DNA of 64,000 nucleotides from Candidatus Omnitrophota bacterium (GTDB lineage: Bacteria; Omnitrophota; Gorgyraeia; Duberdicusellales; 4484-171). Below are positions 3,001 to 24,600 of this stretch, in pieces; positions within the stretch are counted from its first letter, which is position 1, and the number at the start of each line of letters is the position of its first letter. The stretch covers positions 8,209 to 72,208 of the forward strand of contig JBAZGN010000002.1 in NCBI GenBank assembly GCA_041652815.1, written 5' to 3'. The notes under the pieces were generated by a model. It did no database searches, was not told the DNA's origin, and saw only the letters and a program-made list of their open reading frames with translations. Position numbers and translations under genes: made by a program.

Positions 3001-6000
3001 GCTGACCAATTGCATTGGACAGAAAAATTAACACTTCTTGAGAACTTTGATTTCTATTTCAACAAACCTATGATTCCCAGATATAATTTATTTGTATTTC
3101 TTTTTGCTTTCTTTTTGAATTTTACACCATTCTCCTATTTATCCTTCCCGTTATTATTTGTGGGCTTGCAGTATTTATTTGCCGAAGCAATTACCGCCGG
3201 AGGAATTAGGCTTTTTAGCACAGACAGGCACCCAGTTATGGGTTATTTTAAATATTTAAGCAGATTCTGGAGTTTAGTCTTTACTTTTGCTCCTTTGATA
3301 CCATTACACGACGAGAAGGTTCGTAACGCATTTAAGGGCAAAGCAGGGTTATTTACTTCCGGGGTTAAAGATATTGTTTATTCGATTATTCCTTTTGAAG
3401 AATTATATGAATGCTATAAGACAACAATCAAATGGGGATTGGTGCTTGCTGTAATATTATTGTTTGCGCCAGCACATCCTTACGCTGTTATCGCACAATT
3501 TTTCTTCTATATTTTCCCATTTGCTTTTATCTTTGGCCCATTCTTGAATAATGGTTATTCAAAACCGTGGTGGGCTATTACAACTCTTGCAATGCTTATA
3601 GGTGCCATGTTTGCTCCTTCAATGATTTTAACTGCAGTACTGATTGCGGGCGGTATATTAACTTTTCTTTTAGGGGTTAAAGCAGAAGAACGCTACACAA
3701 AAGGTATTTACCAAGGATTATTAGCTTCACTGTACTATACCTTAGAAGTCTTCCTGAGCTTATTTTTTATTAAGGTTGATTTCTTTGAGTGGTTAGCAGC
3801 TATGCCCGATGTTACTAAACGTAAAGATGGCGAGCCGGTAATAAAGAGTGGTAAACCGGACAATGAGATGCTTAACTTAACTCTTTTCTTTAAAGGAAAA
3901 AACCCCGGTGTTGTTGGTGGCGAGAAAGATGCTGGTAAAGGAAAAATGGTAAAATACTATGATAACCCGGCTACTAATAACAGCAGCCATAACATTTATA
4001 AGGTATTTGGGCAACTGATATTATTGACTGCGACAATAGCCGCATCTTTCGCTGCACTTTATACCGCTATAAAAGTGTTAATGATTAGCGTGGTTACATT
4101 GGCAGTTTTAAGTTTAATTGTTTATCCCGTATTGGTTTATAACGAACGATTTGCACGAAGTATGAAGGATTTCATTAAACCCATTAAAGACGATGATTTG
4201 CCTAAACAGGATGAAGTATTATCTCTTGATTACAAACTTCTCAAAATCTGGCAGTCCTTAATACCAAAAATAAATAAAGTATTTAGTTGGTCTTATCCAT
4301 TGAAAGTTATGGTATTAAGCATTGAATATGGCTTTGTTTCCATGGTTTATTTCCTCTCCATTGCATTATGGCAAAAAAGTAATAACAAAAAAATTACCAA
4401 AACTACTTATCCCGCCACCATGCCTGTTGTTAATATTCCTGATAGAAACGCTACGCAAGAAGAATTACAAATAATTATTAATGCTTTTGGTGGCAGTAAA
4501 GCATTAGCGCACAATAAAATTACTCTTAATACAAATAATACGGTAATTAGCGGTTTATTAGAATCGCCGGCAGAAGTCAGTAATGGAATTTTATTTATAA
4601 ATCCTAATACCTTACGTGGTCCACCGGAGCAGTTAAGAGTTATTTTTGAAGGACATGAATTATTCCATTTACTTAACCCGGATTTTTCAGAGGAAGCTGC
4701 ACGCCAATACACTATTGAGTATTTGTCCGCACGTAATCTTTTAGCGAGACATATTCAATTTCTGCAGAAGAATGATATTGGGCTTGTAGCGAATAGTTTT
4801 TGGATGGAACAATCAAAGATTACAAACGAACCTAAATTATCTACTAGGTTAGAGAATTTCCAGAAAGTTGAGAAAATTGAGAGAATCGCCGAAGTAGTGA
4901 TTTATATTCTAGTGATAGCATTGCTGGCTATATTTACACCTCTAAGAAATCCTGTAAATTTATTTCTCCAAATTATTGGAGTACTAGTAGTAACAAGTTT
5001 TCTTATTCATATTATTGAGAGTAGCATTAAGGAAACAATATTTGGAATTATAGAGATCCCAGCTTCTTATAGGGGAGAAGTTGGTAAAACCTATCGCGGT
5101 TCAACAGCTGAAGAATATGATGACGATGAAGACAACGATTCAGTGGATTATTCTTCAAGTCCAATAGAGTCAAACGAACCGGGCTTCTTTGGCAGGATCT
5201 GGCGGGATATGCGGATAAATTATCATATAGGGCAGTTGAGAAGTGAAAATGAAAAAATTAGACAAGCATCGGCAGATGCCTTGACCAAAATTGGCGAGCC
5301 GGCAGCAGAATTAATTATTAAAGAATTAGATACCCCTATTAATAAATGGTATAAGCCTGCAAGAAATTCCCGAAACACCCCTGTGGCGGAGTTGATAGAA
5401 ATTTTAGGAAGAATGAGAAGTCTTAGAGCTATACCTAAACGGCAATTTCAAACATTAACTAGTTTTGAATTAATTCCCCGCTATTCAACCCAGCTTCGCC
5501 TGCCTTTAACCCGTGGCCCTCCGCAAAATGCGATTACAAATAAAGATTCATCCCCAATATCTACGGTTTCGACTTTTGCTCCAAAAAGCATTAGCAATTT
5601 AATCCGCTACAGTGATTTAGAAGAGGCGTTTACTAACGAGTATGAGTGTGTTCTTGATTTAGAATTCGAGAAGAAAGATGAACGATTCTCAATTTTAGCA
5701 TTACCATTAGCAGTTAAGGTAAAAACCCCTCAAGACTACGATAGAGAAGCAAAAGAATTAGCATTTTCATGGGGCACTTCTGATAACCCGCGACATCAAT
5801 ATTTTGAAGCACTACAGCAAATAAGAGAGAAAGACAGACAGGAAGCAACTAAATACAGAACTGCCCAAAGATTTGCCGAGATACTGAATCAGGCTTTACT
5901 TACCGTTGAAGAAATAATTCATCAGCAAGGCGGAGCAGAATTCATTCGCTATTTCCAAGCTAAGTTAAATTCACCTGACAATAGAGCGCCTCCTGTCCGC

Positions 6001-9000
6001 ATTAGAGTTAATTCCAACTTACCAGTAAATTCAGCAAGATACTACAATAAAACTAAAAACGAAGTAGAAATACTTTTTAATGACAAATTTGCTCTTGAAC
6101 TTATAGGTGCATATGATACTTATAGAGAAGCAGTTATCACCATTTTTGGTGAACGTCTTTTCCATGAGCTCTGCCATACCAATAATGGCGATATAAGAGT
6201 AGCTACGGTTAACGAAGCCCGCCGCATAGAGCGCGACTATCAATTGCATAAATTGATTGTAACGAACAAAAGACAAGAAGACGTTGACCTTTTCTATAGA
6301 GAATACCACCCGTCATGTCGCTCCGGTTATTACTTCAAATTTTTAGAAGAGCTCGAAGGCCTTGATGCGCAGCAAAGGAAAATTGCGATTTTAAACTATC
6401 TTTATGCCAATTATCCCGTAGATACAGCCGCCAACCTTTCTATTATTTTAGGAAGAATAGATCTTTCCAAATATGATACAAAAGCCAAATTTGCCATCTA
6501 TTCTGGCCCTCCGGGAGGCGGCAAGGGAGCAGTATCCGAAGAATTTAATAAACTTTTTGGACGTCATATACAGAAATTTATTCTTTTCCATACCAGAGGA
6601 ATACGGCCGGGAGAACGTCAAGATGAAAACTATCATTTCCGCACGGAAGAACATTTAAGGAAATTAAAACAAGAAGGGAAAATACTCACTACTTTGATTA
6701 ACAACCAATTGCAGGGTTTAGCTGTAGAAAGTTTTACCGATACTTATGCCGATCCAGTAACTAACGAAGAAAGAACAACTGAAATTAATGGTCTCGATTC
6801 TGTTTTTAACGGATCACGAATAGTCATCCTTGAATGTGGGCTTTCCTGGTTTGAAATATTAAAAGAAAAATATCCCGATCTTTATGCAATTTTTATTTCG
6901 CCGTTCAATGATAAATATTTAAGCGAAAAATCACATAATCCTGATGCCGCTTTTGAGGCAATCGTAGGCAAGGAAATTGCTTTAAGAATACATGACCGAG
7001 AATGTAAAAATGCCAAAAAAGCCGCTGCCAAGTTTTCAGAAGAGAAAAAATTCTACATCCCTACTTCACAAGGAGAATATGTCAACCGTATCAACGAGGC
7101 GGTAACACAGGTCAAAAGAAGGCATGAATACAGAGTGAATTTAGTCAATGAATGGGTGCCGGAAGATCGTTATGAAGCAGCAATAGGTATATTAACCGAA
7201 CAATTCGCGCAAGCCATCTTCTCAAACGTGCTTACCGCAATGGAGGTTGAGTTTAATGCTGCTGATTCTGCTGAACAGCTTTCTACACGTTTAGGTACCG
7301 TTGATATAAAAGCCAAAGAAAGCCAGGCAAAATTTGTCATCTACTCCGGACCTCCGGGAGGAGGAAAAGGTGCCGTTTGGGATAAGTTCAAGAAAAGATT
7401 CGGCGAATCCAATAATAGTTACGGTGAAAATTTGCTCAATAAATTCCGTCTTTTTCATACCAGGAGCATACGACCCGGCGAAGTCCAAGATGTTGATTAC
7501 CACTTTAGAGATGCAGCGCATTTAAATAAATTACGACAAGAAGGGAAAATCATTACCGTTTTGATTAATGACCAACTACAAGGTTTGCCTTTGGTTAATT
7601 TCCACGATACCTACAAGTATCCGGATCCGGATGATCCTACGACAATTCATGAGGGCGAGTGCGATGTTGTCGGCCTTGACTCGGTATTCAAAGGTGGGCA
7701 GATAGTTCTCTTGGAAGGAGGCCTAGGCTGGTTTGAACAGTTACAACAGATGTGCGGTAAGGATATTTTTAGTATCTTTATATCACCTTTTAGCGATGGC
7801 TATTTAGAGGCGAAATCCCATGATCCAGAGGCAATGCTTGAAGCGATTGTCGGCAAGGAAATTGCATTACGTATCCATGCCAGGGAAGTAAAAGGCGCCG
7901 CATTACAAAAAGCAAATAATGAAGAAAAATTTCAACAAGGAAAAACAGATGAGATTAAACACTGGTTTCCGACGAAACACGAGGAATTTGTCAACAGGGT
8001 CAATGAGGCCGTTATCCAAATAAGAAGAAGGCATGAATACACAAAGGTATTAACCAATGAATGGGCTAACAGTCAGCAAGAATATCAACGTATCATAAGA
8101 AAGCTTACCGAAGAATTTTCACAAGCTATTTTTGGAAATCTTTATAATAACCTCAACGAAGGTTATGTTAAGGCATTCGGCGGAGTAAGCTCTCCTATTT
8201 CAGAAGAATCTTCTCCAAGCGCAAACTTTATTTCCCCCTTCTCTCCCCATAACATCGCGACTCTCATACGCTATGCAGATTTAGAAAATGGTTTCAATGA
8301 TACATATGAATGCAGTCTTGATTTGGAGAAAAAACCATTGAAGAGATTCAGAGCAATAGGCAATAAAGCTTATGATTTAGCAATGGTTTTAAACGAAGCA
8401 TTAATAGTAGTTGAAGAAATTATCTCAAAAGGCGCCGATACAGAACTTACGCGTTATTTCCAGACCAAGCTTAATATGTATTATAACCGTGGACCCCCTA
8501 TTAAGATAAGGCTCAATTCCAAATTAACAGTTAACGCCGCAAGATATTATAACAGGGTTACTAATACGGTAGAGATTATTTTAAATGAACGTTTTGCCTT
8601 GACTCTACTTGCTGCCCGTACGACTTTCCCAGAAGCTATACCAGTTATCTTTGGTGAACGCCTTTTCCATGAGCTCTGCCACACTAATAACGATGATATT
8701 AGGCTTGCCGTAGTCCATGAAGCTCACCGTATCGAAAGAGATCTTCAACTCCATCAATTAGTTGTCGCCAGCGGAAAACAAGCATTTATAGATGATTACT
8801 ACCAACAATTACATCCTGTATGGCGCTCGGGCTATTACTTTAGGTTTCTTGGTAAACTAGGTAAACTTGAAGATAAAGTTCAACGCGGGAAAGCCATAGA
8901 TGCTTATTTAAAGCGTGAATATCCCGTTATTACAGCTTCTAATCTTTCCATAACTTTAGGAAGGATAGAGCTGGGCCAGCATAACACTTCTGCCAAATTT

Positions 9001-12000
9001 GCCATCTACTCCGGGCCTCCAGGAGGAGGAAAAGGCGCTGTCTGGGAGAGATTCTCCAGTCTATTTAGCCATCAAATCGAGCGTTTTATATTATTCCATA
9101 CCCGTTCAATGCGCAGCGGAGAAGTGCAGGATGAAACTTACCATTATAGAAGCGAGGAGCATTTAAAGGCACTGGAAGCAGACGATAAAATTATAACTAC
9201 AAAAATCAACAACCAATTACAAGGTTTAGCCATAGAGACATTTACAGATACCTATATTGACCCTGAAACAAAAGAAGAAAGAACAACAACGGTAGTCGGT
9301 CTTGATACGGTATTTAACGGAGAGAAGGTAGTTGTTCTTGAATGCGGATTAGCCTGGTTTGAAGTTCTAAGCGGTAAATATCCTGACCTTTATTCTATAT
9401 TTATCTCACCATTTTCCGCTGAATATCTTGAAAAGAGTTCACATGACCCCCAAGCGGCATTTGAAGCAATCATCGGTAAAGAGATTGCTTTGAGAATTCA
9501 TAGCAGAGAATGTAAGAATGCTAAAGCAGCCGCAGACAAATTTAAAACGGATCCCCAAGCAAAACTCTACACCCCCACTCCCCAAGCAGAATATATCGAT
9601 AGAATTAAAGAAGCAGTAGAACAGGTAAGAAGGCGGCATGAATATAAACTTGTTTTAGTCAATGAATGGGTACCGGAAGATCAGTTTGAAGAAGCTATTT
9701 TAAAGCTGACCGAAGAATTTGCCAAAGGTATCTTCTCCAACCTCTTAAGAGCGTTAGAGATGCCTTTTGACGATAATGCTTCAGCAGACCAATTAGCAAT
9801 GATTCTGTCGGCAGCAGACCTTAAAACAAAATCAACTTCTGCCAAATTTGCCATATACTCCGGGCCTCCAGGAGGAGGAAAAGGCGCTGTCTGGGAGAGA
9901 TTTATCGAACATTATAGTAATGTTTATAATATCTATGGGGAGCCATTAATTGCTAGATTTAGGCTTTTCCATACCCGGGCAAAAAGGCCAGGAGAAACAC
10001 AGAATGAACATTATTACTATAGAAACGGTATTCATCTCAACAAGCTAAGAATTGAAGGTAAAATTATCACTACCTTGATTAATAATCAGCTTCAAGGATT
10101 GGCTTTAACCAGCTTCGCCGATACTTATACTGATCCCGAGACCAATCAGCAGGAACAATTTGATGTTGTCGGCCTTGACTCGGTATTCAAAGGTGGGCAG
10201 ATAGTTCTCTTGGAAGGAGGCCTAGGCTGGTTTGAACAGTTACAACAGATGTACGGTAAGGATATTTTTAGTATCTTTATATCACCCTTTAGCGATGGCT
10301 ATATTGACAGGCAGTCCAATAACCCGCAATCAGCCTTCAAAGCCATAGTAGGCAAGGAAATTGCCTTGAGAATCCATGCCCGTGAATGCAAAGATGCCAA
10401 AAAGAGAAAAGAGAATGCTGAAGTAGATAAAGAGCAGGGCAATCGTGAAGCTATAAGACTTTTCTCCCCTACGCCACAGCAGGAATTTATCAACCGGATA
10501 GAAGAAGCAGTAGAGCAAGTCGCAAGAAGAGGAGAATATAGTGATATCTTAGTAAATACTTGGGTGCATAACGAAGAAGAATTCCGTCAAGCAGTAAGGG
10601 AACTTACTGAAACATTATCTGTAAATGTCTTCTCCCATCTTTTTAATGAACTGAGAGAAGGTTATGTCAAGGCATTTGGGGGAGCGAGTTCGGCGGTGGC
10701 AACCGCGCAGCATATTATCGTAAACAGGATACTTTTCCAGAGACGGCACGATAGGGCTGAAGTGCTTGTGCATCAAGGCATAAACCCTTCTACTATAGAA
10801 AATATAGCGGGAGGCGCTATTGATTTATTATCTGAAGACGGTTTTACTAGAGCAGTTTTGACTGCAATGGGTGTTGTTGATTTTGACTCTCTTGATAAAA
10901 ATAACGAAGACATAAGCGCAATCACTATGCTTGAATCGTATCGAGATATAAATGATAGCATCGCGGCTGGCACAGTAAGCCTATTCGCATTCAGGGCAGA
11001 TATGCAGCGAGAAATCATTGATCGCTTGATCAATGATTTCAAAATGGTGGGATATAGTGGCGAATATAATGAAGCATACGTTGATGTGTATGACAACCAT
11101 GCAAGAACAACGGGCGTGGTTATGCCACGTGCGCAAGTTCATATGGATGGAGATTTGCACGCGGATGTATATGTGTTTGTGTTTAATGACGACGGGAATA
11201 TTTTGATGCAGACACGTTCTGCCCAAAAGGAGATTTATCCTTTAAAAAGAGAGGCGTCAGTGAGCGGACATAGAAGAGCTGGAGAAGACGCAAAAACAAC
11301 AGCTGTACGCTTATTAAAAAAAGAAATTGGTTTGGAAGCGCGACTGGACAACCTTGTCCAGCTTGGTACAGAAAACAGGTTAAGACGCACGGAGGATTTT
11401 AACAATAACCTTAAAGAAAGGCTTTTTACAACAGTATTTGCCTATGTTATCTCTATCAATGACACTATTACTTTTAATCCCCAGGAAGTTAAAAGTATTG
11501 AGTTTGTTAACGCGGACAAGGAATTGCGCGAGCTAAAGGCAAACAGCGATAATTACGCAAGCATAAAATACGTTTTGTCTGATAGGGAAGTAATAGATGA
11601 AATAAGAAGAATAGGTTCTGAAATCAGTGAGTATAGAATTTCCGTAGGCCAAAGAAGCAAAGACAATGAAATACTTTTTAGAATAAAAAATGTTTTTTCT
11701 ACAGATAGAATAAAAAGTGCCGCTTTCGTCACACCGGAAGCAATACCTTTTGCCAAAACCGGCGGACTAGGGGATGTCTCCGGTGAACTGCCTCAAGCTG
11801 TAGCAGAGCTTGGCATAGCAACTTATATATTTACTTTAGGTTACAACGCAATCTTTCAGAAGTATGACCTTGTCGACACCGGCATAACAATAGAAGTTGT
11901 TATTGACGGCAAGCAGGTACCGGTAAAAATTTGGACAAAACATGAGCGCAATGTTACTTACTTCTTTTTATCAGCACAAGATTATGCCAAGGTACCTTAT

Positions 12001-13146
12001 GCCGGAGATAAATTGCATCTAACATTACTTTTATCCGAAGGAACATTAAAAGCAATTGAGCAGCTTGTTGCCAGGGGTATAATTGTCAACCCGCAAATTA
12101 TACACGCTAACGATTGGCAAACAGCCTTAGTTCCAGTATTTATAAAAACAAAATACAACACGCATCCGCTTTTTACTCATACAGCGACATTATTTACAAT
12201 ACACAATCAAAAGTATAGGGCTGATTGGATCCCGGTACAAAGATTTCCAGAATTAGGTATAGGCTGGGAGCATTGGTTTGGTTTGCAACAGCCGGAAGCC
12301 CCGCAGTATTTTAGTCTTATGCGAGGCGGTATATTCCACGCTGACAAATTGAACGCTGTTTCACCTGCCAATAGAGAGGAGTTATTAACCGTTAAATACG
12401 GAGAAACATTGGTCGATTTATTTCAGGCAAGGGCGCTTGATATGGTGGGTATCATGAACGGTGTTGACTATGACGTTTGGAATCCGGCAAATATTGAAGA
12501 CAAGCCCATAGAGAAAGCTTTATTGCAGGCAAATTTAGGCTTTGAGGTAAATCCAAATATTCCGTTTATCGGTATGGTAGCAAGGATTGCCGCGCAAAAA
12601 GCCGTAGATAAAGTAGTTGCTGTTATTGGAAGATTATTAATGGAAACTAATGGTCAGCTGCAATTTGTTTTTCTCGGTAAAGGTAATCCTCAGGATCCTT
12701 ATAATAGCAAGACAATGAGCATGATGCAGAAATTAGCTTCGAATTCCCGCTGGGCGAAGAATATCAAATTTATGCATCAGTATACAACCGATGAGCAGAT
12801 AAAAGTTTTTAGAGGGATTGACATGTTTCTATATCCTTCTGAGTATGAACCGTGCGGTACCAAACCGATAGTCGCTCTTATCAATGCTGTGCCTTGTGTA
12901 GTTCGAAAAACAGGAGGTTTGGCTGATAACGTACAGGAATATAACAAATTAACTGGAGAGGGAAATGGTTTCATTTTTGAAGAAAATGCAGGCCCGGTTT
13001 TTTATGCTGCTTTAAAGAGGGCGCTTAAAACATTCAGTGATAAAACACATTGGCCTAGAGTCGTCATCAATGCACAGAGTAAAGATAGGAGTTGGACACT
13101 ACCGGCAATGGAATATATAGAATTGTATAAAGCCGCTATTTTTAAA
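1..13146 (+). CDS. Giant multidomain protein, part 1. It is 5'-partial: open from the window start in frame 1 and ending at TAA 13144-13146. Contents: a polytopic membrane region, HExxH modules, four guanylate-kinase-like domains, a Nudix/IDI-like domain and a glycogen-synthase-like domain.
   Basis: Manual frame-1 translation from nt 1 found no stop until TAA at 13144-13146 (...EYIELYKAAIF*). Every 60-nt line starts a codon, and I checked frame alignment at many line starts. The domain motifs are listed in the features below. Confidence 0.85.
706..5013 (+). other. Polytopic membrane region. It contains at least 12 hydrophobic helix-length segments, with an embedded soluble stretch at about 1320-3080.
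   Basis: Translated hydrophobic runs include GFVLSAIALYFVPIASFILKAFGVISIPVNPWVIGLAIAMVSLATILYAVGLL, FYGTVIFGICLYYGWGVIPVFGWVMGGLLITLI, WGLVLAVILLFAPAHPYAVIAQFFFYIFPFAFIFGPFL and VFGQLILLTATIAASFAALYTAIKVLMISVVTLAVLSLIVYPVLVY. Confidence 0.6.
4654..4668 (+). other. HExxH motif (HELFH), a candidate zinc-metallopeptidase-like site inside the membrane region.
   Basis: cat gaa tta ttc cat, in frame. The context is VIFEGHELFHLLNPDFSEE. Confidence 0.3.
5542..6460 (+). other. HExxH-containing domain of repeat unit 1 (HELCH at 6163-6177). It is a paralog of 8245-8980.
   Basis: ISNLIRYSDLEEAFTNEYECVLDLE...IFGERLFHELCHTNNGDIRVATVNEARRIERDYQLH. The HExxH motif is in frame. Confidence 0.4.
6475..7290 (+). 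other. Guanylate-kinase-like domain 1, with a variant P-loop GPPGGGKGA.
   Basis: KFAIYSGPPGGGKGAV (P-loop at 6505-6528), then LFHTRGIRPGERQDENYHF, which resembles the guanylate kinase TTRxPRxGExDGxDYxF motif, and AIFISPFNDKYL. Confidence 0.55.
7321..8160 (+). other. Guanylate-kinase-like domain 2.
   Basis: KFVIYSGPPGGGKGAVW (7348-7371), LFHTRSIRPGEVQDVDYHF and IFISPFSDGYLEAKSH. Confidence 0.55.
7663..7803 (+). repeat. A 141-bp near-identical tract shared between otherwise divergent guanylate-kinase-like paralogs. It looks like a gene-conversion tract.
   Basis: gatgttgtcggccttgactcggtattcaaaggtgggcagatagttctcttggaaggaggcctaggctggtttgaacagttacaacagatgtgcggtaaggatatttttagtatctttatatcaccttttagcgatggctat matches 10162-10303 (and 15118-15259) with 2 mismatches. 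Confidence 0.85.
8245..8980 (+). other. HExxH-containing domain of repeat unit 2 (HELCH at 8668-8682).
   Basis: IATLIRYADLENGFNDTYECSLDLE...IFGERLFHELCHTNNDDIRLAVVHEAHRIERDLQLH. Confidence 0.4.
8986..9810 (+). other. Guanylate-kinase-like domain 3.
   Basis: KFAIYSGPPGGGKGAVWERF (P-loop at 9013-9036) and LFHTRSMRSGEVQDETYHY. Confidence 0.55.
9835..10695 (+). other. Guanylate-kinase-like domain 4.
   Basis: KFAIYSGPPGGGKGAVWERFIEH (9862-9885) and LFHTRAKRPGETQNEHYYY. Confidence 0.55.
11080..11490 (+). other. Nudix-fold domain resembling type-1 isopentenyl-diphosphate isomerase (IDI).
   Basis: GDLHADVYVFVFNDDGNILMQTRSAQKEIYPLKREASVSGH resembles the IDI-1 pattern LHRAFSVFLFN..G.LLLQ.R...K.TFPG...CSHP. 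A degenerate Nudix box follows: GHRRAGEDAKTTAVRLLKKEIGL. Confidence 0.55.
11716..13143 (+). other. Glycogen/starch synthase-like glycosyltransferase domain (GT5, GlgA-like). It is the last domain before the TAA.
   Basis: AAFVTPEAIPFAKTGGLGDVSGELP carries the KTGGL motif (11755-11778). The C-terminal FLYPSEYEPCGTKPIVALINAVPCVVRKTGGLADNV resembles the GlgA pattern PSRFEPCGL....G..P.VR.TGGLADTV. Confidence 0.75.
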
Positions 13147-13163
13147 AAAACAGGCAATATTTC

Positions 13164-15658
13164 TTCTTCTCCAAGCGCAAACTTTATTTCCCCCTTCTCT
13201 CCCCATAACATCGCGACTCTCATACGCTATGCAGATTTAGAAAATGGTTTCAATGATACATATGAATGCAGTCTTGATTTGGAGAAAAAACCATTGAAGA
13301 GATTCAGAGCAATAGGCAATAAAGCTTATGATTTAGCAATGGTTTTAAACGAAGCATTAATAGTAGTTGAAGAAATTATCTCAAAAGGCGCCGATACAGA
13401 ACTTACGCGTTATTTCCAGACCAAGCTTAATATGTATTATAACCGTGGACCCCCTATTAAGATAAGGCTCAATTCCAAATTAACAGTTAACGCCGCAAGA
13501 TATTATAACAGGGTTACTAATACGGTAGAGATTATTTTAAATGAACGTTTTGCCTTGACTCTACTTGCTGCCCGTACGACTTTCCCAGAAGCTATACCAG
13601 TTATCTTTGGTGAACGCCTTTTCCATGAGCTCTGCCACACTAATAACGATGATATTAGGCTTGCCGTAGTCCATGAAGCTCACCGTATCGAAAGAGATCT
13701 TCAACTCCATCAATTAGTTGTCGCCAGCGGAAAACAAGCATTTATAGATGATTACTACCAACAATTACATCCTGTATGGCGCTCGGGCTATTACTTTAGG
13801 TTTCTTGGTAAACTAGGTAAACTTGAAGATAAAGTTCAACGCGGGAAAGCCATAGATGCTTATTTAAAGCGTGAATATCCCGTTATTACAGCTTCTAATC
13901 TTTCCATAACTTTAGGAAGGATAGAGCTGGGCCAGCATAACACTTCTGCCAAATTTGCCATCTACTCCGGGCCTCCAGGAGGAGGAAAAGGCGCTGTCTG
14001 GGAGAGATTCTCCAGTCTATTTAGCCATCAAATCGAGCGTTTTATATTATTCCATACCCGTTCAATGCGCAGCGGAGAAGTGCAGGATGAAACTTACCAT
14101 TATAGAAGCGAGGAGCATTTAAAGGCACTGGAAGCAGACGATAAAATTATAACTACAAAAATCAACAACCAATTACAAGGTTTAGCCATAGAGACATTTA
14201 CAGATACCTATATTGACCCTGAAACAAAAGAAGAAAGAACAACAACGGTAGTCGGTCTTGATACGGTATTTAACGGAGAGAAGGTAGTTGTTCTTGAATG
14301 CGGATTAGCCTGGTTTGAAGTTCTAAGCGGTAAATATCCTGACCTTTATTCTATATTTATCTCACCATTTTCCGCTGAATATCTTGAAAAGAGTTCACAT
14401 GACCCCCAAGCGGCATTTGAAGCAATCATCGGTAAAGAGATTGCTTTGAGAATTCATAGCAGAGAATGTAAGAATGCTAAAGCAGCCGCAGACAAATTTA
14501 AAACGGATCCCCAAGCAAAACTCTACACCCCCACTCCCCAAGCAGAATATATCGATAGAATTAAAGAAGCAGTAGAACAGGTAAGAAGGCGGCATGAATA
14601 TAAACTTGTTTTAGTCAATGAATGGGTACCGGAAGATCAGTTTGAAGAAGCTATTTTAAAGCTGACCGAAGAATTTGCCAAAGGTATCTTCTCCAACCTC
14701 TTAAGAGCGTTAGAGATGCCTTTTGACGATAATGCTTCAGCAGACCAATTAGCAATGATTCTGTCGGCAGCAGACCTTAAAACAAAATCAACTTCTGCCA
14801 AATTTGCCATATACTCCGGGCCTCCAGGAGGAGGAAAAGGCGCTGTCTGGGAGAGATTTATCGAACATTATAGTAATGTTTATAATATCTATGGGGAGCC
14901 ATTAATTGCTAGATTTAGGCTTTTCCATACCCGGGCAAAAAGGCCAGGAGAAACACAGAATGAACATTATTACTATAGAAACGGTATTCATCTCAACAAG
15001 CTAAGAATTGAAGGTAAAATTATCACTACCTTGATTAATAATCAGCTTCAAGGATTGGCTTTAACCAGCTTCGCCGATACTTATACTGATCCCGAGACCA
15101 ATCAGCAGGAACAATTTGATGTTGTCGGCCTTGACTCGGTATTCAAAGGTGGGCAGATAGTTCTCTTGGAAGGAGGCCTAGGCTGGTTTGAACAGTTACA
15201 ACAGATGTACGGTAAGGATATTTTTAGTATCTTTATATCACCCTTTAGCGATGGCTATATTGACAGGCAGTCCAATAACCCGCAATCAGCCTTCAAAGCC
15301 ATAGTAGGCAAGGAAATTGCCTTGAGAATCCATGCCCGTGAATGCAAAGATGCCAAAAAGAGAAAAGAGAATGCTGAAGTAGATAAAGAGCAGGGCAATC
15401 GTGAAGCTATAAGACTTTTCTCCCCTACGCCACAGCAGGAATTTATCAACCGGATAGAAGAAGCAGTAGAGCAAGTCGCAAGAAGAGGAGAATATAGTGA
15501 TATCTTAGTAAATACTTGGGTGCATAACGAAGAAGAATTCCGTCAAGCAGTAAGGGAACTTACTGAAACATTATCTGTAAATGTCTTCTCCCATCTTTTT
15601 AATGAACTGAGAGAAGGTTATGTCAAGGCATTTGGGGGAGCGAGTTCGGCGGTGGCAA
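13164..15658 (+). repeat. Segmental duplication, copy A-prime. It contains guanylate-kinase-like domains 5 and 6 (P-loops at about 13969 and 14818) and HELCH at 13624-13638.
   Basis: Identical to 8207-10702. It starts in frame 2 and is restored to frame 1 by a 1-nt shorter run: cttctcccccat here versus cttctctccccat in copy A. The preceding TAA at 13144 is the only in-frame stop in the window. Confidence 0.9.
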
Positions 15659-18600
15659 AAGGCAAAGATTTTGACATCATTGTTCGATTTTTTGATGGTG
15701 ACCAAGATGCGACCTTTGCCGCATTAAGAAACTGGCAGCGTGAATTCAAAGAGATTCTGGGACAAGATAGAACTATGGTGCAACTCACTACTTTCAAAGA
15801 CGATAAGCATCCCGATGGCACAGAATATTTCCGTGTTACAGACGAGAACGGAAACTATACAGGAGAAATTCGTCCTCGTGATCTTTGCCATATTGATGGC
15901 ACTTGGCACAGAAGCGTATTTATGATTTTAATTGATAAAGAAGGGCGAATGTTAGTTCAGATAAGGTCTGACAATAAAAAGTTTTTTCCTGGTTGCCGTG
16001 ATACTTCTGCCAGCGGTCATTTAGGTCTTACAGAAGATTATATCGATGGAGCGATCAATGAAACTCAGGAAGAAGTATTTAATTCCCAGCTTAAGCTAGA
16101 TAGGGCAAGGATAATACAAATCGGCGGAGATTCTTTTCTTACCGTAGTTCATTCGTATCCCGATAATAAGCTTAATGATCGGGAACGCTCATCTTTATTT
16201 GTATATATTGTTAATAATGAAGAAAAATCAAGAATTGAGAAGCAAGAAAGTGAGGTTAAAGCTCTTGAATGGGTAGATTTGGAAGAAGAATTGTCCTATC
16301 TTGATTTTTGGATGAAACATCATAATGAGGCTGCCCGTAACGGTCTAGATTATGCTGCCTTGGGAATTGATATATTATCTAATCAAGCAATTGTGGCTAA
16401 GCTGCGAAATATAATAAAAGATAAAGCTATCGGAAGAAATAGTTTAGACGATAGCAGCTCTTCCTCGATTTCTACAAAACCGCTATGGCGTGTTCAGATG
16501 GAAAAGCATACTAGACGAATATTTGCATGGGTTTGCGAACGCGAGGTTATCCCCCGGGATTATGATCTTCTTTGGGTATTAGGATCAGCATCAGTCCGTG
16601 TTGCGGTAGAAGCCGCAAATCAATGGAAGAGAAAACCAACAAAAGTCCTTATTACTGGTGGCATTGGCCGTGAAAGTGTCACCTTTAATCAAGTAAGTAG
16701 TGGGGATTTTTCTCAGGAGGCATTAAGGGCGATAGACGATACTTTAGATCGGTTATTTCGTTTAAGAAGCGCAAAAGTTGCGGCAATTTTCTGGCAAGAA
16801 ATATACAGAAGGTCCGGCATTAAAAACGGTAAAGACAGAGAAAAAATAGCTAATCCAAAAATTATGAAAACAATACGACAAATTGCTAAAAATGGTGATT
16901 TCGTAGGAAGTAGTTCACCGGTTGAAATAAAAAGACCAGAAAAAATAATAATATGGCCAAACGATAAGGAGGCCGCTTATGGTGAGCTTGTTGGCGGTAA
17001 AGGCAAGAGTTTAACCGAATTGGCGCAGGTAGTCGATGTACCAGAAGCTTTTTTTATCAGTACCGAGGCATACAGATATTTTATTGTAGTAAATTATATC
17101 AACAGACTAATCAATGAATTAGATGTGTTATCTCATGCTTGGATCCTATCAAAATTACAAAGCGAGTTAAGAATTAGCAATAAAAATAGCGAAAACGAAG
17201 AGGAGCTTCGTAATCGCATTGAAAGTAAATCAAAGAAAATTAGACAGGTAATTCAGAGTGCAGAATTCCCTATTTTTATTGTTGAAAGCATAACATCCGC
17301 ATATAAAACTTTATCCGTACAATTTAACCAAGACGATTTAGCTGTTGCAGTTAGATCTTCGGCAACATCTGAAGATCAAGCGGGTATGTCTGCAGCCGGT
17401 CAACACGATACGTATCTTAATCAGAAAAACATAACGCAAATCCTGGTTGCCACTAAAGGTTGTTGGGCTTCACTTTTTAACGACAGGGCCGTTGATTACC
17501 GCAATAAGCAAGCGTTTTCTAAGCTTATAAGAAAATATAGAACAAACGAAACAGTAAAGCTAGAAAAAAATATGTCTGGTATTCCTCTCCATGCAGCGGT
17601 AAATATGTGTACGGTCGTGCAAAGAATTATAGAACCTAAAGTTTCAGGAATTGGTTTTAACGTTGACCCCGTAAATGGTCAAAAAGTTATACGTCTTAGC
17701 GTCAATTATGGTTTTGGTGAGTCAATTGTTGCTGGTAATATTACACCGGAAGCATGGTGGATTGATGCTGAGGAGGATAAGATTATTGGATGGAGAATTG
17801 GTTCCAAAGTTGAAAAGATTATAAAAGGAAGGGACAGTGGAATAGTTTCTATACGAACATCAGAAGCAGAATCCAAGACATTTGCTTTAAGGGACGAACA
17901 AGTTCTAGAAACAGCACGGGCAATTCGTAAGATTGCAAGGCATTATGCGTATACGCAAGGCATAAAGCGAATTGATACAGAATATCTTTTTGATGAAAAT
18001 GATAGGCTTTATTTTGTCCAAACTCGTCCAGAAACAGCTTTCGAACAGAGAGATATGAAATTTACGGTTTCTCCCGATGCTATTCAGGATATTGACAATG
18101 TAACTCTCAATGGAATAGTTGCTAGTTTAGGCTCTGCTATAGGAAGATTAAACATTGTTAGGCATCCCAGTGAGGTAAATGATGGAGATGTGGTGGTTAC
18201 TTTTGCAACAAATCCTGATTGGGCTTTAAGTATGGGCAGGGCAAGAGCGGTTATTACGGACAGAGGTGATGATTTGTGTCATGCTGCTATAGTGAGTAGG
18301 GAATTGAATTTCCCATGCATAGTCGGAACAGGTAAGGCTACTGATTCTTTACAAAAATATCAGGGAGAAATTGTAACGCTTGATACATTTAGGCGCATGC
18401 TTTTTAAGGGTGCATTACCTCTCATTGAAAAAACAACCAAGGGTAGCATAGAAGACAAAATCGTTACTGTAAAAACTATAAAAGAAACTATAACTGAGGA
18501 TATTGATGAAATTAGGGCACGCGGACGAAGCATATTTGATGCAATAGGAATCGAATGGCACGGAAGGCCACCACATTATGTACCAACACTTCAAAGAGAT

Positions 18601-21600
18601 TTGATGGTTGAATCATACCAAACGGTAGGACAAATGTTTAATTGTCAGTTTAGAACAATGGTTAAAGACGGTATTGTCTATGTTCGGATAAGCGATAATT
18701 TTAATCCACGCTACGTTTTAGAGGCAATTTCTTTAGAAGATTTTGAGAAGTTGATGGCTTCAAGAGATGAAAATGTCGAAGAATTATTACGATTTATGGA
18801 ACATTTTACTTTTACTCCAGAAAATTTAAGAAAATTCAGAAAGCTTTATATTTTATTCATTGCTTATATGTCAATATCCCGAGAGCTGAGAACTCTTACC
18901 CAGAGAATGCTTGTTGAGCCATTTAATAGAATACCTTCTTTTTTAAAGGAAACAATCTTAACAGCAGCAGCGCAACAATTTCCGCTAACCTCTCTTGACG
19001 CGATAAAAGAGTACGAAGGAATTCTTTATGAAGCAAGAGGGTTGTTGCAGTTATTCTTGGAAAATGAGCCTATCACGGTTAGTACTTTACTTGATGAGTC
19101 CAACCCATTATTATCGCAAAAAATTAAAACATACATAAGTAAGTATAAACATCGCGGCATGAAGGCTGATATACAAGTTGCACCTCCGATAGATGACTTT
19201 TTTGAACACATTAAATCAGATTTACTAGAGAAGGCTCCGCGATTCGAAGAAAGAAGGTTAAGCCTTGAACTCGAACTTGAAAAAACTAAGGACTATTTTG
19301 AGAACGATACAGAATTTCAAGAATTTAAGCATAAAGTAGTATTAGGTGCAGCTGCAGCAGTACAAATGGAAAATGAACACCATTATAAAGCCCGTATACA
19401 TTTCAAAATAAGAGAAGAACTTATAAAATTTGCAAATCATATGATGGGGCTAGGCATAATTGATAGCCAAAATGATGTTTTCGAAATTCCCATTGAAAAT
19501 ATTATTTTGCTGGCAGAAGAGAGTTCTTCTCCGTTGCAACTTCCGGTTGAGATCGAAAAAGAATATTTAACGAGAGTAACGCATCTTGCTAGAACCGGCA
19601 TAATTAATCCCGATATAGTTAAGCAGGTTGAATTTTCAATGCGTAGTGAAGAACTTAATATGTATTTTATTGCCATGCAAAGTATTCTCTCTGCTGAAGT
19701 TAAAACCAAAATTACAGCCGAAGTTGCATTTAAAGCTGCTCAAAGAACTCTTGGGAGTAGGCAATCACATGTGAAAGCTAACATAGGTCTTCACCCGGGC
19801 ACAATGAATCCACTTACCTACGGGCATATTATCGAAGATTTAGGAGTAATTTTGGATAAGCGTCTTGACGCAGTAGTTATTGCGGTTGGAGGAAATGTGC
19901 CAGATAAGCCTTTTGCGCCTGCGCATTCATTACGTAGGGAAATGACCGAAGCGGGTATAAATAGTGCAGACCATTTAGGCAACTATATATTTGTAACTTC
20001 TATACGAGAACAAATTGCTAATATATTTGTTTCCAATAATGCGTTGGCTTTTGTAGGCGAAAGCCCCGAAGAACGCAGGTTAAATATGGATATTGCGGCA
20101 TTTGCATGGCTTTTTGCGGCCTATCCTTTTGTGCATTGGCTCTATATTATAGGTGAAGATAAGCTTATCGATTATGGAAGAAAAAAGGAAGTTGAACTTT
20201 TACAAAATACTCTTTACAGGGTAGGCGCCAATATAGTTTATTTCTTGCGTAAGGCTCATGGGGGTTTTTCTTATGATGAGCATATTAAACCTTTTCCTTG
20301 GTTAAGGGCTCTTTGGGATGAAGGAATATTTATCAAATGTACGATTCCTTACATTGATTATATCTCATCTACTATAGTACGGAAAGCTTTCGCTGGCTCG
20401 ACAGAAGCTATAGAAGGATTATTTTTTAGCGAGGTAATTCCGCAAGGTGTGATTGATTTTATACAGGCTCGACCATTTCTTGCCAAATTATATTTGATAG
20501 AGCACTTAATTAATGAGGCAAGGCATTTTGCCGATGAAGGAAACTTTGACGGTGCAAAGAATAGATATACACAAGCTTTAAATATTATTAATACTTTAGA
20601 TAGTGCTAATATAAATATCTCTGGAGTAGATTTATTTGGTTTAAGAAAAATGATAATTACTGAAATGTTCAAGATAGAAGATACAGTTAATGATAATCTT
20701 TCGAATGGGGATATGGTGTCTTCAGCCTCAACAAATCCTATGTGGCGCATTGAGGTGAGAAGAAATATACTTAACATATTAGGTTTGATTTATGAACATA
20801 ATAATATTAAAGCAAAATCTTCAAACCATATTAATTTAAGGTTTGGAGATTATGAACAGAAAAGGAACAGAAAGAATAGTAACGCAAATTCACCCGTATC
20901 TTTTACGCAACAGGCGATAGCTGATATTAAAAATGCAAGAGAAGCGGCTCGACAAAAATTAGGGATATCTTATGCGATACCGATAATTTTATACGGTAGT
21001 TATTCTAAGAGGAGCCAAAGAGCCGGATCTGATTTAGATATATCTGTTGTGTATGGAGATATGCCATTTAGCGGTAGATTTAAAAAAATACAAAAAGCAT
21101 ATGAATTTGCTGATGTTTTTCATGGGGAATTACGCGGGCTGGGATATTATATTGATTCAACGCACGATTTTCTTTTGGTAGAAAGCTTGGATGAATTTGT
21201 CAGAGCGCGCTATATAGATACATTAGCTGCTTTAAAGAAAGTAATTCTAATAACAAAAAATAGTGTCGAGTTAGTTGATATCAATCGGGTAGTTGCATTA
21301 GTAAGATTAGCGCATTTTGGAAGTCAAGAGATTGGTGGTAATCTCGCAAGCTTAATCTCTTCGCGCAGTTACCCATTCAATGGGCTCACCGATCAAGAAC
21401 ACCAATTATTAACCAAAGGATTAACGCGGCAAGGACTATTGGAAATAACCAGTTCGCCGGCACAAGCTGCCAGTCGGTCATTTAAATATCCCGTTGTTTT
21501 TGACCCCAGAACCCAGCAAATAGGAAGATATCGCATGCAATTTGAGACAGAAGTAAATGTAAAAGTTGAGCGGGGCAAAGTAGCGATTATCAATCATCCA

Positions 21601-24600
21601 AAGGGAATTAAATATGCGTATAATCTGGATACCCTGCTGGAGCGATTGAAAAAAGCCGCAGCGACACTGCCCTTAACGGCTTCGTTTGAAAGTACAATTG
21701 TTCTCACGCCCAATGTCAGCGTAATTGAAGTACCGGGAGTTGGCGAGTGTAAATTTGTATCTGAATATGACATTTTAACCGGAAAAATCAAGATTTACTT
21801 TTTATTCGCCTTGGATGACGACGAAACGTTAGCTACCTGCTTACGCAGCACCCCACAGGAAGCTGATCATTTTCTTGTTACAGCTTTGCGTGATGAATTA
21901 CTACACGCTGCAGGATTAAACCAGCAACAAGCAGATAGTACAACTTTAGAGTGGTTGGCGCGGCCCGCCAGTCGAGATTATCTATGGGCTAATATTACCG
22001 TGCTAGATCCAGCCAATAAAAACAGTATGTATGCATTGGGAAGATGGTTTACGTATTTAGAGTCGAAAGAAGTAGGAACATTACGTGATAAAACCCGGAT
22101 TCAAAAATTAGACCAACGAATGACAGGGCTGATTGTTAATGATGTAGTTGAAGATAACCATATTTATCACGCAATAAGCAACTGTTGTCCTTGCCGGCAT
22201 AAATATGGTTATTACCATTATGGAAGAGAATACAACAGTTATTTCAATGTTATGGAAGCAGTTGAAACCGGGCCGACAGGAGCTGACTCTACAGACTTAG
22301 AACGGTATTATGGATATAGCATTCGTTACCGAACAAAAACAGAAAACATTAGAGAGATCCATTTCTCTGCAGCTAATTTTATTTGTGCCACTGTAAATAA
22401 CCTCAACCCGCCATTGGATGGAAGCAATCTTTGGGATGGCATAGAGAATTATAACTTGGTTGAATTTGTACTTTTTTCGCCGAAATTTTCCTCTACCCGT
22501 ATTACCCCTGTACAAGGTATGTGGTTATCGCGTTTCGCTAACATTAAAGATGATCGGATATTAGCTTATTGCGTTATGCACGCCCCGTATATTATTAGAA
22601 CATATGACAGTGATCAGGTCTGGGATGAATTCATTTCAGGATTAAAAGTAGAGGATTTACCAGAGAATTATCAAACTCTTAAAGTAAGTTCATCAATCGC
22701 TAATTGTGAGATAACAAGTGTAAAAAATAGAAAGTGGCAGATTCCAAGTGCAAGTTCTCCGGCAAGGTTAGAGGAATTAAAACGGAACACTAAGAGGCTC
22801 GAGTTAGAGCTTGATAAGATAGATAGTGCCATAGCCAGTGACAGATACAAAGAGCTAGGAGAAAGGCCATTTGAAGGTGTTGAGCAAGATAGCTGGCCTT
22901 ACCGTTATCTATCAACCTTGTTAGCCGAGTTAGGTAATTTACGCAGGTTAAGAATAACATTTGGTGTTGAGTTAAAAGAGGCCAGCAAGGAAATTTCTCA
23001 ATTAGAAAATCCGCCAACCACAAGCTCGCCGGTACCTTCTACACGACAGGCAATAGCTGATATTATAAATGCACGAGAAGCGGTTCGACAAAAATACAGT
23101 AAAGATGCAATTTCCTCAAGTGTTGAGCCTATTTTAAGCCATCTGATTCATGGAAAGTGGGAGATAAACAAAGCTGAAAATGCAGATGCGGTTTATCTGA
23201 AGGGAGATTTGTATTATCGGGACCAGCTAATCGGTTCTGTAGGGAGGAAGAGAGAATCGCAAGGAATACTTATAGATGCAATCGGTTGCGCTATTTATGT
23301 GTGCCATGATGTAAAAATGAACTTACATACATTAGATTTGGCAAAAGAGTTTGCTGCCAGAAGCTATCTGATAGGGTATTTAATCGGCAAAGCTTTGGGG
23401 TTTAATCCCAAGTGGGCATTGGCTTACTATGTGATTACTGCAATTGATTATCAAAGAGATGATCAGATGAGTACGCCTCATACTGGCTTAATAGTTACAA
23501 TGCGTAGAGAATGGGGGAAGCTTGCTACCTCATTAGGATTCAATAAAGGCGAAAAGGATGACCGGCTTGCTGAATTTGATAGGCGAATAAGAAGTAAGAT
23601 TGGGCCAAGCGATGAATTTGGCTATAGGTATTATGACTTTTATAAGTTTGTCCGTGATGTATCGCGCGAGTGGATAAGATGGTTTTATCTGGACAGGGCT
23701 CTGGGTTTTTATGCTCAGAGAGATGTTTCGGACGATGGCCTTCTTGTCCGAATGGGATTTGATGGCAGCTGGCAAGGTGTAAGAAAGCAGTTACAACTAA
23801 GCCTCGAAGAAGAGTTCAGCCAGTTAAATTTAGGCCCAATCCCAGAGCAGGTTTTTACAGGAGTAGACGCAGCAGAGAGCGTAAGCTCGCCTGTTAATGT
23901 AGAGGAGCAGATTAAACAATCAGACAGATTACGAGGATTGGTTATTCCATTAATTGAAGGTATTACTGAGGCTGCCGAAGAATGGTCAGCGTTAGAGAGG
24001 AACGGTTTGGAAGATGAAGCATTAACAGCTAGCCTTAAGTATGCTTACAGGTGTTTAATCTATGCAAGAGATGAATTAGTCCAAATGCAGCAGGATTTAC
24101 AACAGCTTCGTAATGATTTAGAGGCAGGCATTCGTGAGGCAACAAGAGAATTAATGGGGGGTATAATGCCGGCTGAAGAGCATGAAACTTGGTGGAATTT
24201 TGTTATTAAATATACTGAAGAACGTATTGAAGGAATCGAAAAACTATTAGCAGAATTAAACCAGCTTCATCAGATTATACTGAACGTTGCCCAACGGGAA
24301 AATAAAGGCACAGGCTCATCGGCGGTTGCAGCCCGTGCTCAACGGTCGATAGCCAATATTGACGCAGTTGCAGCAAACAGCAGCGCATCTTCGGATGATA
24401 GGTTGCCATTGGTTGAAACGCGCAAAAGCCTTACCTATATATATAGAGGACTGGAAGGTAATAGTTTTAACCCAAGAGGCTCCAGCCCGATAAGTGATGA
24501 TGAATTTAGAGTTCAACTTGGAGAAGATTATTCGCTATGGTTAGCGCAATTCCTAAGCGGCATTAAAGAAGAAGTTGCGCGTCTTATCATTAGCCATTGG

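Follow-up and report, generated by a model that had tools for sequence, protein, structure and literature searches.

The interval 13100-13260 of a 64,000-nt stretch of contig JBAZGN010000002.1 from a Candidatus Omnitrophota bacterium (the whole stretch is called the window below) probably marks the upstream junction of a duplication that is very recent, in frame and non-tandem, and that lies within an intact giant gene. The base-by-base comparison shows that nucleotides 8209-10702 are identical to nucleotides 13165-15658 over 2,494 of 2,494 positions, with no mismatches and no indels, which confirms the 2.5-kb identical duplication reported in the initial annotation of this stretch. The copy is exact and in frame, comprises a whole module, extends from linker to linker, and lies within an open giant reading frame. 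Both the 64-kb open frame and the exact 2.5-kb repeat are far beyond chance.

Reading frame across the junction

In the six-frame stop count, frame 1 of the forward strand contains no stops in 21,333 codons (64,000 nt), and the other five frames of the same window contain from 766 to 2,009 stops each. Hence there is a single open reading frame (ORF; positions 1-64000, forward strand, frame 1) of at least 21,333 codons, which extends past either window edge, so that the start and the end of the gene lie outside. The ORF listing of the window is empty because this lone ORF overruns both window ends.

The initial annotation had placed an in-frame stop codon TAA at 13144-13146, had set the start of the second copy at 13164, one nucleotide out of phase, and had described a return to frame 1 through a run that is 1 nt shorter in the second copy. 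The TAA actually occupies positions 13143-13145, in codon phase 3, and position 13144 is the first base of the frame-1 codon AAA. This out-of-frame TAA is contained in a T5A7 run (13139-13150, forward strand), and the local frame-1 reading is GCT ATT TTT AAA AAA ACA. The second copy starts at 13165, and its offset of 4,956 nt (3 x 1,652) from the first copy keeps it in the same phase. The run is the same in both copies (CCCCCTTCTCTCCCCATAAC at 8235-8254 and at 13191-13210), with no indels. The coordinates given originally were inconsistent, with 4,957 nt between the starts (8207 and 13164) but 4,956 nt between the ends, and this slip led to the imagined out-of-phase start and the 1-nt correction. 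The claimed stop and frame correction are a counting error. The upstream edge of the second copy does fall in the flagged interval, right after the glycogen-synthase-like domain (the Pfam GT5/GT1 match ends at approximately 13029), and of the suggested recent duplication that splits the gene, the duplication stands, while the split does not, the ORF being unbroken through both novel junctions.

The T5A7 homopolymer pair with the overlapping TAA is the one feature that could point to a recoding site (programmed frameshift or read-through), to a gene split by the duplication, or to a homopolymer indel at the junction. However, this TAA falls in phase 3, frame 1 stays open before and after it and over the entire window, the copies are in phase and indel-free, promoter- and terminator-like sites near the junction occur at chance level only, and there is no Rfam match. 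The T5A7 run reads in frame as TTT AAA AAA, with no frame change present. Since neither a stop nor a frame change exists, the homopolymer-error and recoding readings are left without an object. For the present sequence, all three readings (recoding, gene split and homopolymer error) are refuted, and the probability of this group of explanations is negligible. Scans of the window for Rfam families, tRNAs and tandem repeats gave no matches. The splitting stop, with the recoding or sequencing error it would imply, is absent from the sequence, and the claim should not be propagated.

Structure of the duplication

According to the self-comparison of the translated protein, the order of modules is mod0 (amino acids 1847-2736), A (2737-3567), B (3568-4388), A' (4389-5219) and C (from 5220), all encoded on the forward strand. 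Mod0 (nucleotides 5539-8208), an older paralogue of A, consists of a zincin-like domain, here named X, and two guanylate-kinase-like (GK-like) domains, and ends in ...GGV-SSPISEE. Copy A (8209-10702), the likely donor in its ancestral context, comprises the X domain (8209-8982, with the motif HELCH...E) and GK-like domains c (8983-9765) and d (approximately 9766-10686), and ends with SSAVA (10687-10701), a probable degenerate delimiter of module B. Module B (10703-13164) contains, by Pfam, a NUDIX domain (approximately 11155-11541) and a GT5/GT1 glycogen/starch synthase (approximately 11722-13029), and ends in ...ELYKAAIFKKTGNIS. It is followed by A' (13165-15658), the likely inserted copy, which equals A and is composed of 831 codons and one shared nucleotide. 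In module C (15659-18387) Pfam identifies NUDIX (approximately 15907-16290), PPDK_N (approximately 16984-17994) and the PEP-utilizers mobile domain (approximately 18178-18387).

With a slash marking the border, the junction upstream of A reads ...GGVSSPISEE/SSPSANF..., the B to A' junction ...KKTGNIS/SSPSANF..., the A to B junction ...GGASSAVA/TAQHII..., and the A' to C junction ...GGASSAVA/KGKDFD... A direct join of B to C without A' would read ...GGCAATATTTCT and then AAAGGCAAAGAT... The borders are sharp, as identity in the flanks of the copies drops immediately to 13-40%. The identity of A and A' starts at codon position 1 and stops one nucleotide into the next codon, which shows that the copied unit is 831 codons.

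Mod0 and A share 60% of amino acids, 64% of nucleotides and 45% of third codon positions, the latter being saturated, and thus A and A' form by far the youngest pair. A simple tandem duplication produced by one unequal crossover was considered and rejected. It predicts the order A-B-A-B, whereas the sequence that follows A', from its first base on, is module C, which is unrelated to B. The similarity of B and C is limited to a distant one in NUDIX (34% over 55 amino acids), so the arrangement is no simple tandem duplication. Placing the copy between two different modules requires two joins, as in a templated insertion, and a single unequal crossover would not suffice.

Comparison with relatives

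The homologues of the window gene found in the protein database are all partial proteins, named as products of Candidatus Omnitrophica or Omnitrophota metagenome-assembled genomes (MAGs), with identity of at most 64%. Proteins P0001, P0002, P0005-P0009, P0011 and P0012 belong here, and one fragment is labelled Deltaproteobacteria. Searches for near-identical sequence gave nothing usable in GTDB representative contigs and JGI metagenome contigs, and partial matches of no more than 64% in the protein database. One match of the contig scan, L001, was rejected as a relative, being an unrelated NUDIX gene with a GC content of 60%.

The most informative relative is P0001 (Candidatus Omnitrophica MAG, 4,709 amino acids, partial), which can be aligned colinearly with the window for several thousand residues. 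The alignment of its residues 3698-4588 with amino acids 3486-4400 of the window (50% identity) crosses the A to B junction. The synthase of module B is 64% identical to that of P0001, and the homology extends to approximately position 13164. In P0001 a C-type NUDIX domain directly follows the glycogen-synthase domain, with no module between B and C. When A' is removed from the window, the alignment with P0001 is unbroken over the resulting join, with score 721, versus 482 for the actual B to A' sequence. In particular, the linker GRA-SSPIE-SGK of P0001 stands where the window has GNI-S[SSPSANF...831 aa...SSAVA]K-GK. P0009-P0012 share the conserved N-terminus GKD[FY] of module C, and the alignments of P0009, P0011 and P0012 start at amino acid 5221 of the window, the right border of A', those of P0009 and P0011 doing so exactly. 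Moreover, SSPVTLAAQTILFERKYDRQAV of P0001 matches SSAVATAQHIIVNRILFQRRHDRAEV of the window, which suggests that the copied unit ends with five residues that belong to B, as its degenerate delimiter. These alignments would be explained most parsimoniously with A' rather than A as the newcomer, the ancestral order having been A-B-C, with a copy of A subsequently placed in the B-C linker.

An assembly artefact is the main rival explanation. A mis-resolved copy number could conceal a single A (pre-A-A-B-C), an array such as (A-B)n-A-C, or two copies whose slight differences were erased by polishing. Exact 2.5-kb repeats are classic trouble spots in metagenome assembly, papers on giant genes describe local assembly errors and repeat-driven fragmentation, and the collections searched contain no independent sequence of this organism. 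However, four distinct junctions (pre-A to A, A to B, B to A and A to C) cannot arise from a single A unless reads are chimeric. The insertion comprises an integral number of codons (831), and the ORF stays open for 48 kb further downstream. All three breakpoints coincide with natural module borders, independently defined by homologues, namely the SSP that opens A, the point where B's delimiter ends, and the B-C linker. A contig running through the two copies would imply long reads or curation, and long reads would easily span 2.5 kb. Assembly collapse or expansion is disfavoured because the borders all fall at inter-module linkers and the insertion consists of whole codons, and we consider an artefact rather unlikely. 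We infer that the event is biological rather than a product of assembly.

Intragenic exchange and the route of insertion

Other high-identity copies are present in the same gene. Positions 29465-29644 and 35351-35530 form a second in-frame dispersed pair (180 nt, 96% identity, seven differences) with an offset of 5,886 nt (3 x 1,962); its borders are sharp, the sequences on either side are unrelated, and the encoded peptide of about 60 amino acids is centred on SSP (...VWKEA-SSP-ASQRLAPFF...). Within A, a 68-nt P-loop patch is 99% identical between positions 8986-9053 and 9835-9902, and is repeated in A' (13942-14009 and 14791-14858). The two GK-like domains around this patch are 50-65% identical, with saturated third positions, and the patch looks like a short gene-conversion tract. 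Together, the 180-nt copy and the 68-nt patch indicate that intragenic exchange is active in the window gene. A similar case is found in P0067, a fragment of another giant protein with the X domain, where residues 1093-1261 and 3324-3492 form an internal dispersed repeat (95-97% over 169 amino acids). Thus, high-identity intragenic copies are present elsewhere in this class of proteins, though rarely (one of 115 fragments).

Gene conversion could also have acted on a whole module, an old, diverged X-GK-GK paralogue between B and C having been recently overwritten by A. The conversion-like patch in its 50-65% background is consistent with such a process, as is the presence of X-GK modules directly before C-type NUDIX modules in P0004, P0007 and P0010. 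On the other hand, conversion depends on homologous anchors and would be expected to leave diverged sequence at the edges of the tract, while here the identity is 100% right up to the borders and the flanks are unrelated. Moreover, B and C adjoin directly in the nearest relative, so that conversion would need an additional in-register deletion there, along with complete conversion of the module in the window. This explanation seems distinctly improbable.

In the preferred interpretation, a recent insertion of A between B and C, the gene would be built of enzyme modules joined by short Ser/Pro linkers, which in the window lineage carry the SSP motif. Module A, that is, 831 codons encoding the zincin-like HExxH...E domain and two GK-like domains and including the trailing SSAVA delimiter, would have been copied whole and pasted 2.46 kb downstream, exactly into the linker that joins module B (NUDIX and glycogen synthase) to module C (NUDIX and PPDK), to yield A-B-A'-C with the reading frame kept. 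The route may have been a templated insertion, either by template switching or by repair of a break, with short homology between linkers, such as TCTTCTCC, serving as the primer, followed by selection for in-register linker-to-linker joins that leave every module intact.

Several observations weigh against the recent insertion of A'. At the junctions of the present sequence at most 0-1 nt of microhomology can be demonstrated, so the molecular route is hypothetical. The collections searched contain neither reads nor a near-identical genome that would independently confirm the copy number and the junctions, and the exact identity of A and A' could be inflated by consensus polishing across the copies. 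The outgroup, P0001, is distant (50-64% amino acid identity) and partial. Finally, P0004, P0007 and P0010 have a GK-like domain directly before the C-type NUDIX, which indicates that modules are shuffled among the giants and that an A'-like module before C could be older than assumed.

Domains of the copied module

The X domain forms the first 258 residues of the copied unit. It has no Pfam match at E<=1 and no significant PDB sequence match, and no matches were obtained with this domain alone in the word-indexed protein search. The exhaustive profile search against 1.84 billion representative proteins yielded only 115 proteins, nearly all of them long fragments. The alignment with relatives reveals an invariant RLF(H/Q)ELxH...E pattern (HELCH...E in A), and the His, Glu, His and downstream Glu residues are conserved in 106-109 of about 114 (128 domain instances). 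As HExxH and the downstream Glu are conserved, while Pfam and PDB name nothing, X is treated here as a putative gluzincin-like domain and not as an established peptidase.

The GK-like domains match Pfam PF00625 with 28.7-33.7 bits (gathering cut-off 25.2) and guanylate kinases from PDB (2j41, 4qrh) with E about 4e-7, the matches covering mainly the N-terminal P-loop and GMP-binding part. The P-loop of all GK-like domains is GPPGGGKG (e.g., amino acids 3003-3010, nucleotides 9007-9030), with Gly in the position after Lys where Walker A usually has Ser or Thr. The GMP-binding-like motif HTR...GE...Y is kept, and kinase activity is putative.

The SSP linker motif

The tripeptide SSP occurs 58 times in the window translation versus 4.0 expected (14-fold), being by far the most enriched of the frequent tripeptides. 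Examples are found at amino acids 5638, 10424, 11175, 14322, 16414, 16941, 19012, 20031 and 20432 (the nucleotide coordinate is 3*aa-2), and the typical context is [A/G][S/A/T]-SSP-[L/I/V/A]. Within 40 amino acids upstream of the inferred N-termini of Pfam domains, SSP is present in 8 of 15 cases, compared to 1.7 at random (p<=5e-5); the domains preceded by it are PPDK_N, PFK, PfkB, PK, the second GT5, Metallophos, HAD and RPE. This is the position where a free-standing enzyme would carry the initiator Met. Both A and A' begin exactly on SSP and contain none internally, and disorder is predicted for the initial 18 residues of the unit.

SSP is encoded with all six Ser codons and all four Pro codons, which points to a constraint on the protein and not on DNA; a role of the motif as a DNA-level recombination site is thereby ruled out. 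Among relatives, SSP is enriched in P0001 (7 versus 0.65 expected) and P0003 (5 versus 0.25). A general trait of giants with the X domain was considered as well and rejected, as the pooled count in the 115 other X-domain proteins is 45 versus 38 expected. Enrichment is limited to the window lineage and a few relatives (P0001, P0003 and P0099), with most other X-domain giants showing none, and so SSP is lineage-specific.

SSP is a candidate module delimiter or processing site, judging by its placement 0-40 amino acids upstream of most catalytic domains. Post-translational cleavage has been proposed for Omnitrophota giants, and the cleavage points of these proteins are not known (West-Roberts 2023, bioRxiv 10.1101/2023.11.21.568195); no linker motif is mentioned in that study or in the 2026 preprint on Omnitrophota long genes (10.64898/2026.06.07.730766). 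A bolder and, on balance, unlikely reading is that the giant protein is a bacterial polyprotein of SSP-delimited cassettes, where SSP would serve both as the processing site and as the joint for copying and re-insertion, and A' would be a cassette that has just moved. The cutting agent would then possibly be the embedded putative HExxH...E zincin-like X domains. If the polyprotein reading is true, sequence could be used to predict the cleavage points.

Gene content and other repeats

Pfam domains identified in the translation include several Guanylate_kin, two NUDIX and two Glyco_transf_5 with Glycos_transf_1 domains, PPDK_N with PEP-utilizers, HATPase_c, PFK, ROK, PfkB, pyruvate kinase (PK and PK_C), Metallophos, HAD and Ribul_P_3_epim, along with weak matches to PGM_PMM and nucleotidyltransferase. 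In the simple hydropathy scan, clusters resembling transmembrane segments are seen only at amino acids 1-1680 (nucleotides 1-5040) and 20318-20402 (nucleotides 60952-61206). The approximately 18,600 amino acids between them are apparently soluble and carry enzyme domains of glycolysis, glycogen and nucleotide metabolism.

Giant ORFs have been described previously (Seymour 2023, PMC10066038), as have the Archaeovorin giant proteins (West-Roberts 2023); genes of the Archaeovorin type are also traced to Kizina 2022 in later papers that cite it. Since the domain list matches the one from West-Roberts 2023 and the "multi-enzyme metabolic" class of Omnitrophota long genes from the 2026 preprint, the window is assigned, by its predicted domains, to the interior of an Omnitrophota multi-enzyme (Archaeovorin-type) giant gene. 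The N-terminal C39/S8 peptidase and SecA-like domains that also characterise this type would be encoded beyond the window, where both gene ends lie.

A DNA motif, CTTACCTATATATAT, occurs six times with at most two mismatches, versus 0.26 expected, the sites being at 24430-24444, 25024-25047, 33247-33261, 42825-42839 and 58149-58163. It lies within a repeat of about 44 nt encoding LPLV...SLTYIY-like peptides, and the codon phase of its (TA)n run differs among copies.

Comparison with known systems

The duplication is an ordinary, though clean, example of giant-gene growth. It provides a clean snapshot of how a bacterial giant gene lengthens, a complete multi-domain module having probably been placed, to the exact codon, in the linker between two other modules, with an ORF of more than 64 kb kept open. 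The parts most worth follow-up are two, SSP as a delimiter and the HExxH...E domain family, which is rare and found in giant proteins only. They offer testable handles on whether such proteins are cut into separate enzymes.

Viral polyproteins comprise many units encoded in one ORF and processed by a protease. The window gene resembles protease-processed polyproteins in the many enzyme units within one ORF, in SSP at the N-termini that free enzymes would have, and in the embedded putative metallopeptidase domains. It differs from them in that its cleavage is putative and in the confinement of SSP enrichment to its own lineage and a few relatives. With programmed frameshift and read-through sites the likeness is limited to the homopolymer run T5A7 and the overlapping out-of-frame TAA, and the window gene, which has neither an in-frame stop nor a frame change, is not a member of this class.

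In large modular proteins, such as those encoded by nonribosomal peptide synthetase and polyketide synthase genes, modules duplicate within genes, and repeat expansion has been proposed for dockerin/TSP3 giants. Features shared with such intragenic module duplication are in-frame copying of a self-contained unit, breakpoints in linkers, and a longer protein as the result. Unlike the cases elsewhere, the copy in the window is not tandem, being placed 2.46 kb downstream between two different modules.

The closest similarity is to the Omnitrophota Archaeovorin giants. Shared features are an uninterrupted ORF far longer than 20 kb (here at least 64,000 nt) and the set of GT5 and GT1 glycogen-synthase-like, NUDIX, PPDK_N, HAD, HATPase_c, ROK, PGM-like and kinase domains. 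Multi-pass membrane stretches, another trait of these giants, may be present as well, judging by the clusters in the simple hydropathy scan. Moreover, the sequence relatives of the window gene are all fragments from Omnitrophota MAGs. The differences are that its closest relatives are 50-64% identical, with none near-identical in the collections searched, and that the SSP linker motif and the HExxH X domain go unmentioned in West-Roberts 2023 and the 2026 preprint. The survey in that preprint found that recent nucleotide-level expansion is generally not the cause of the repeat architecture in Omnitrophota long genes (10.64898/2026.06.07.730766), whereas the window gene carries an exact 2.5-kb dispersed copy. 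As fresh expansions of this kind are uncommon there, the locus is a useful natural example, and the underlying duplication adds one more case of a known process in a gene of a known kind.

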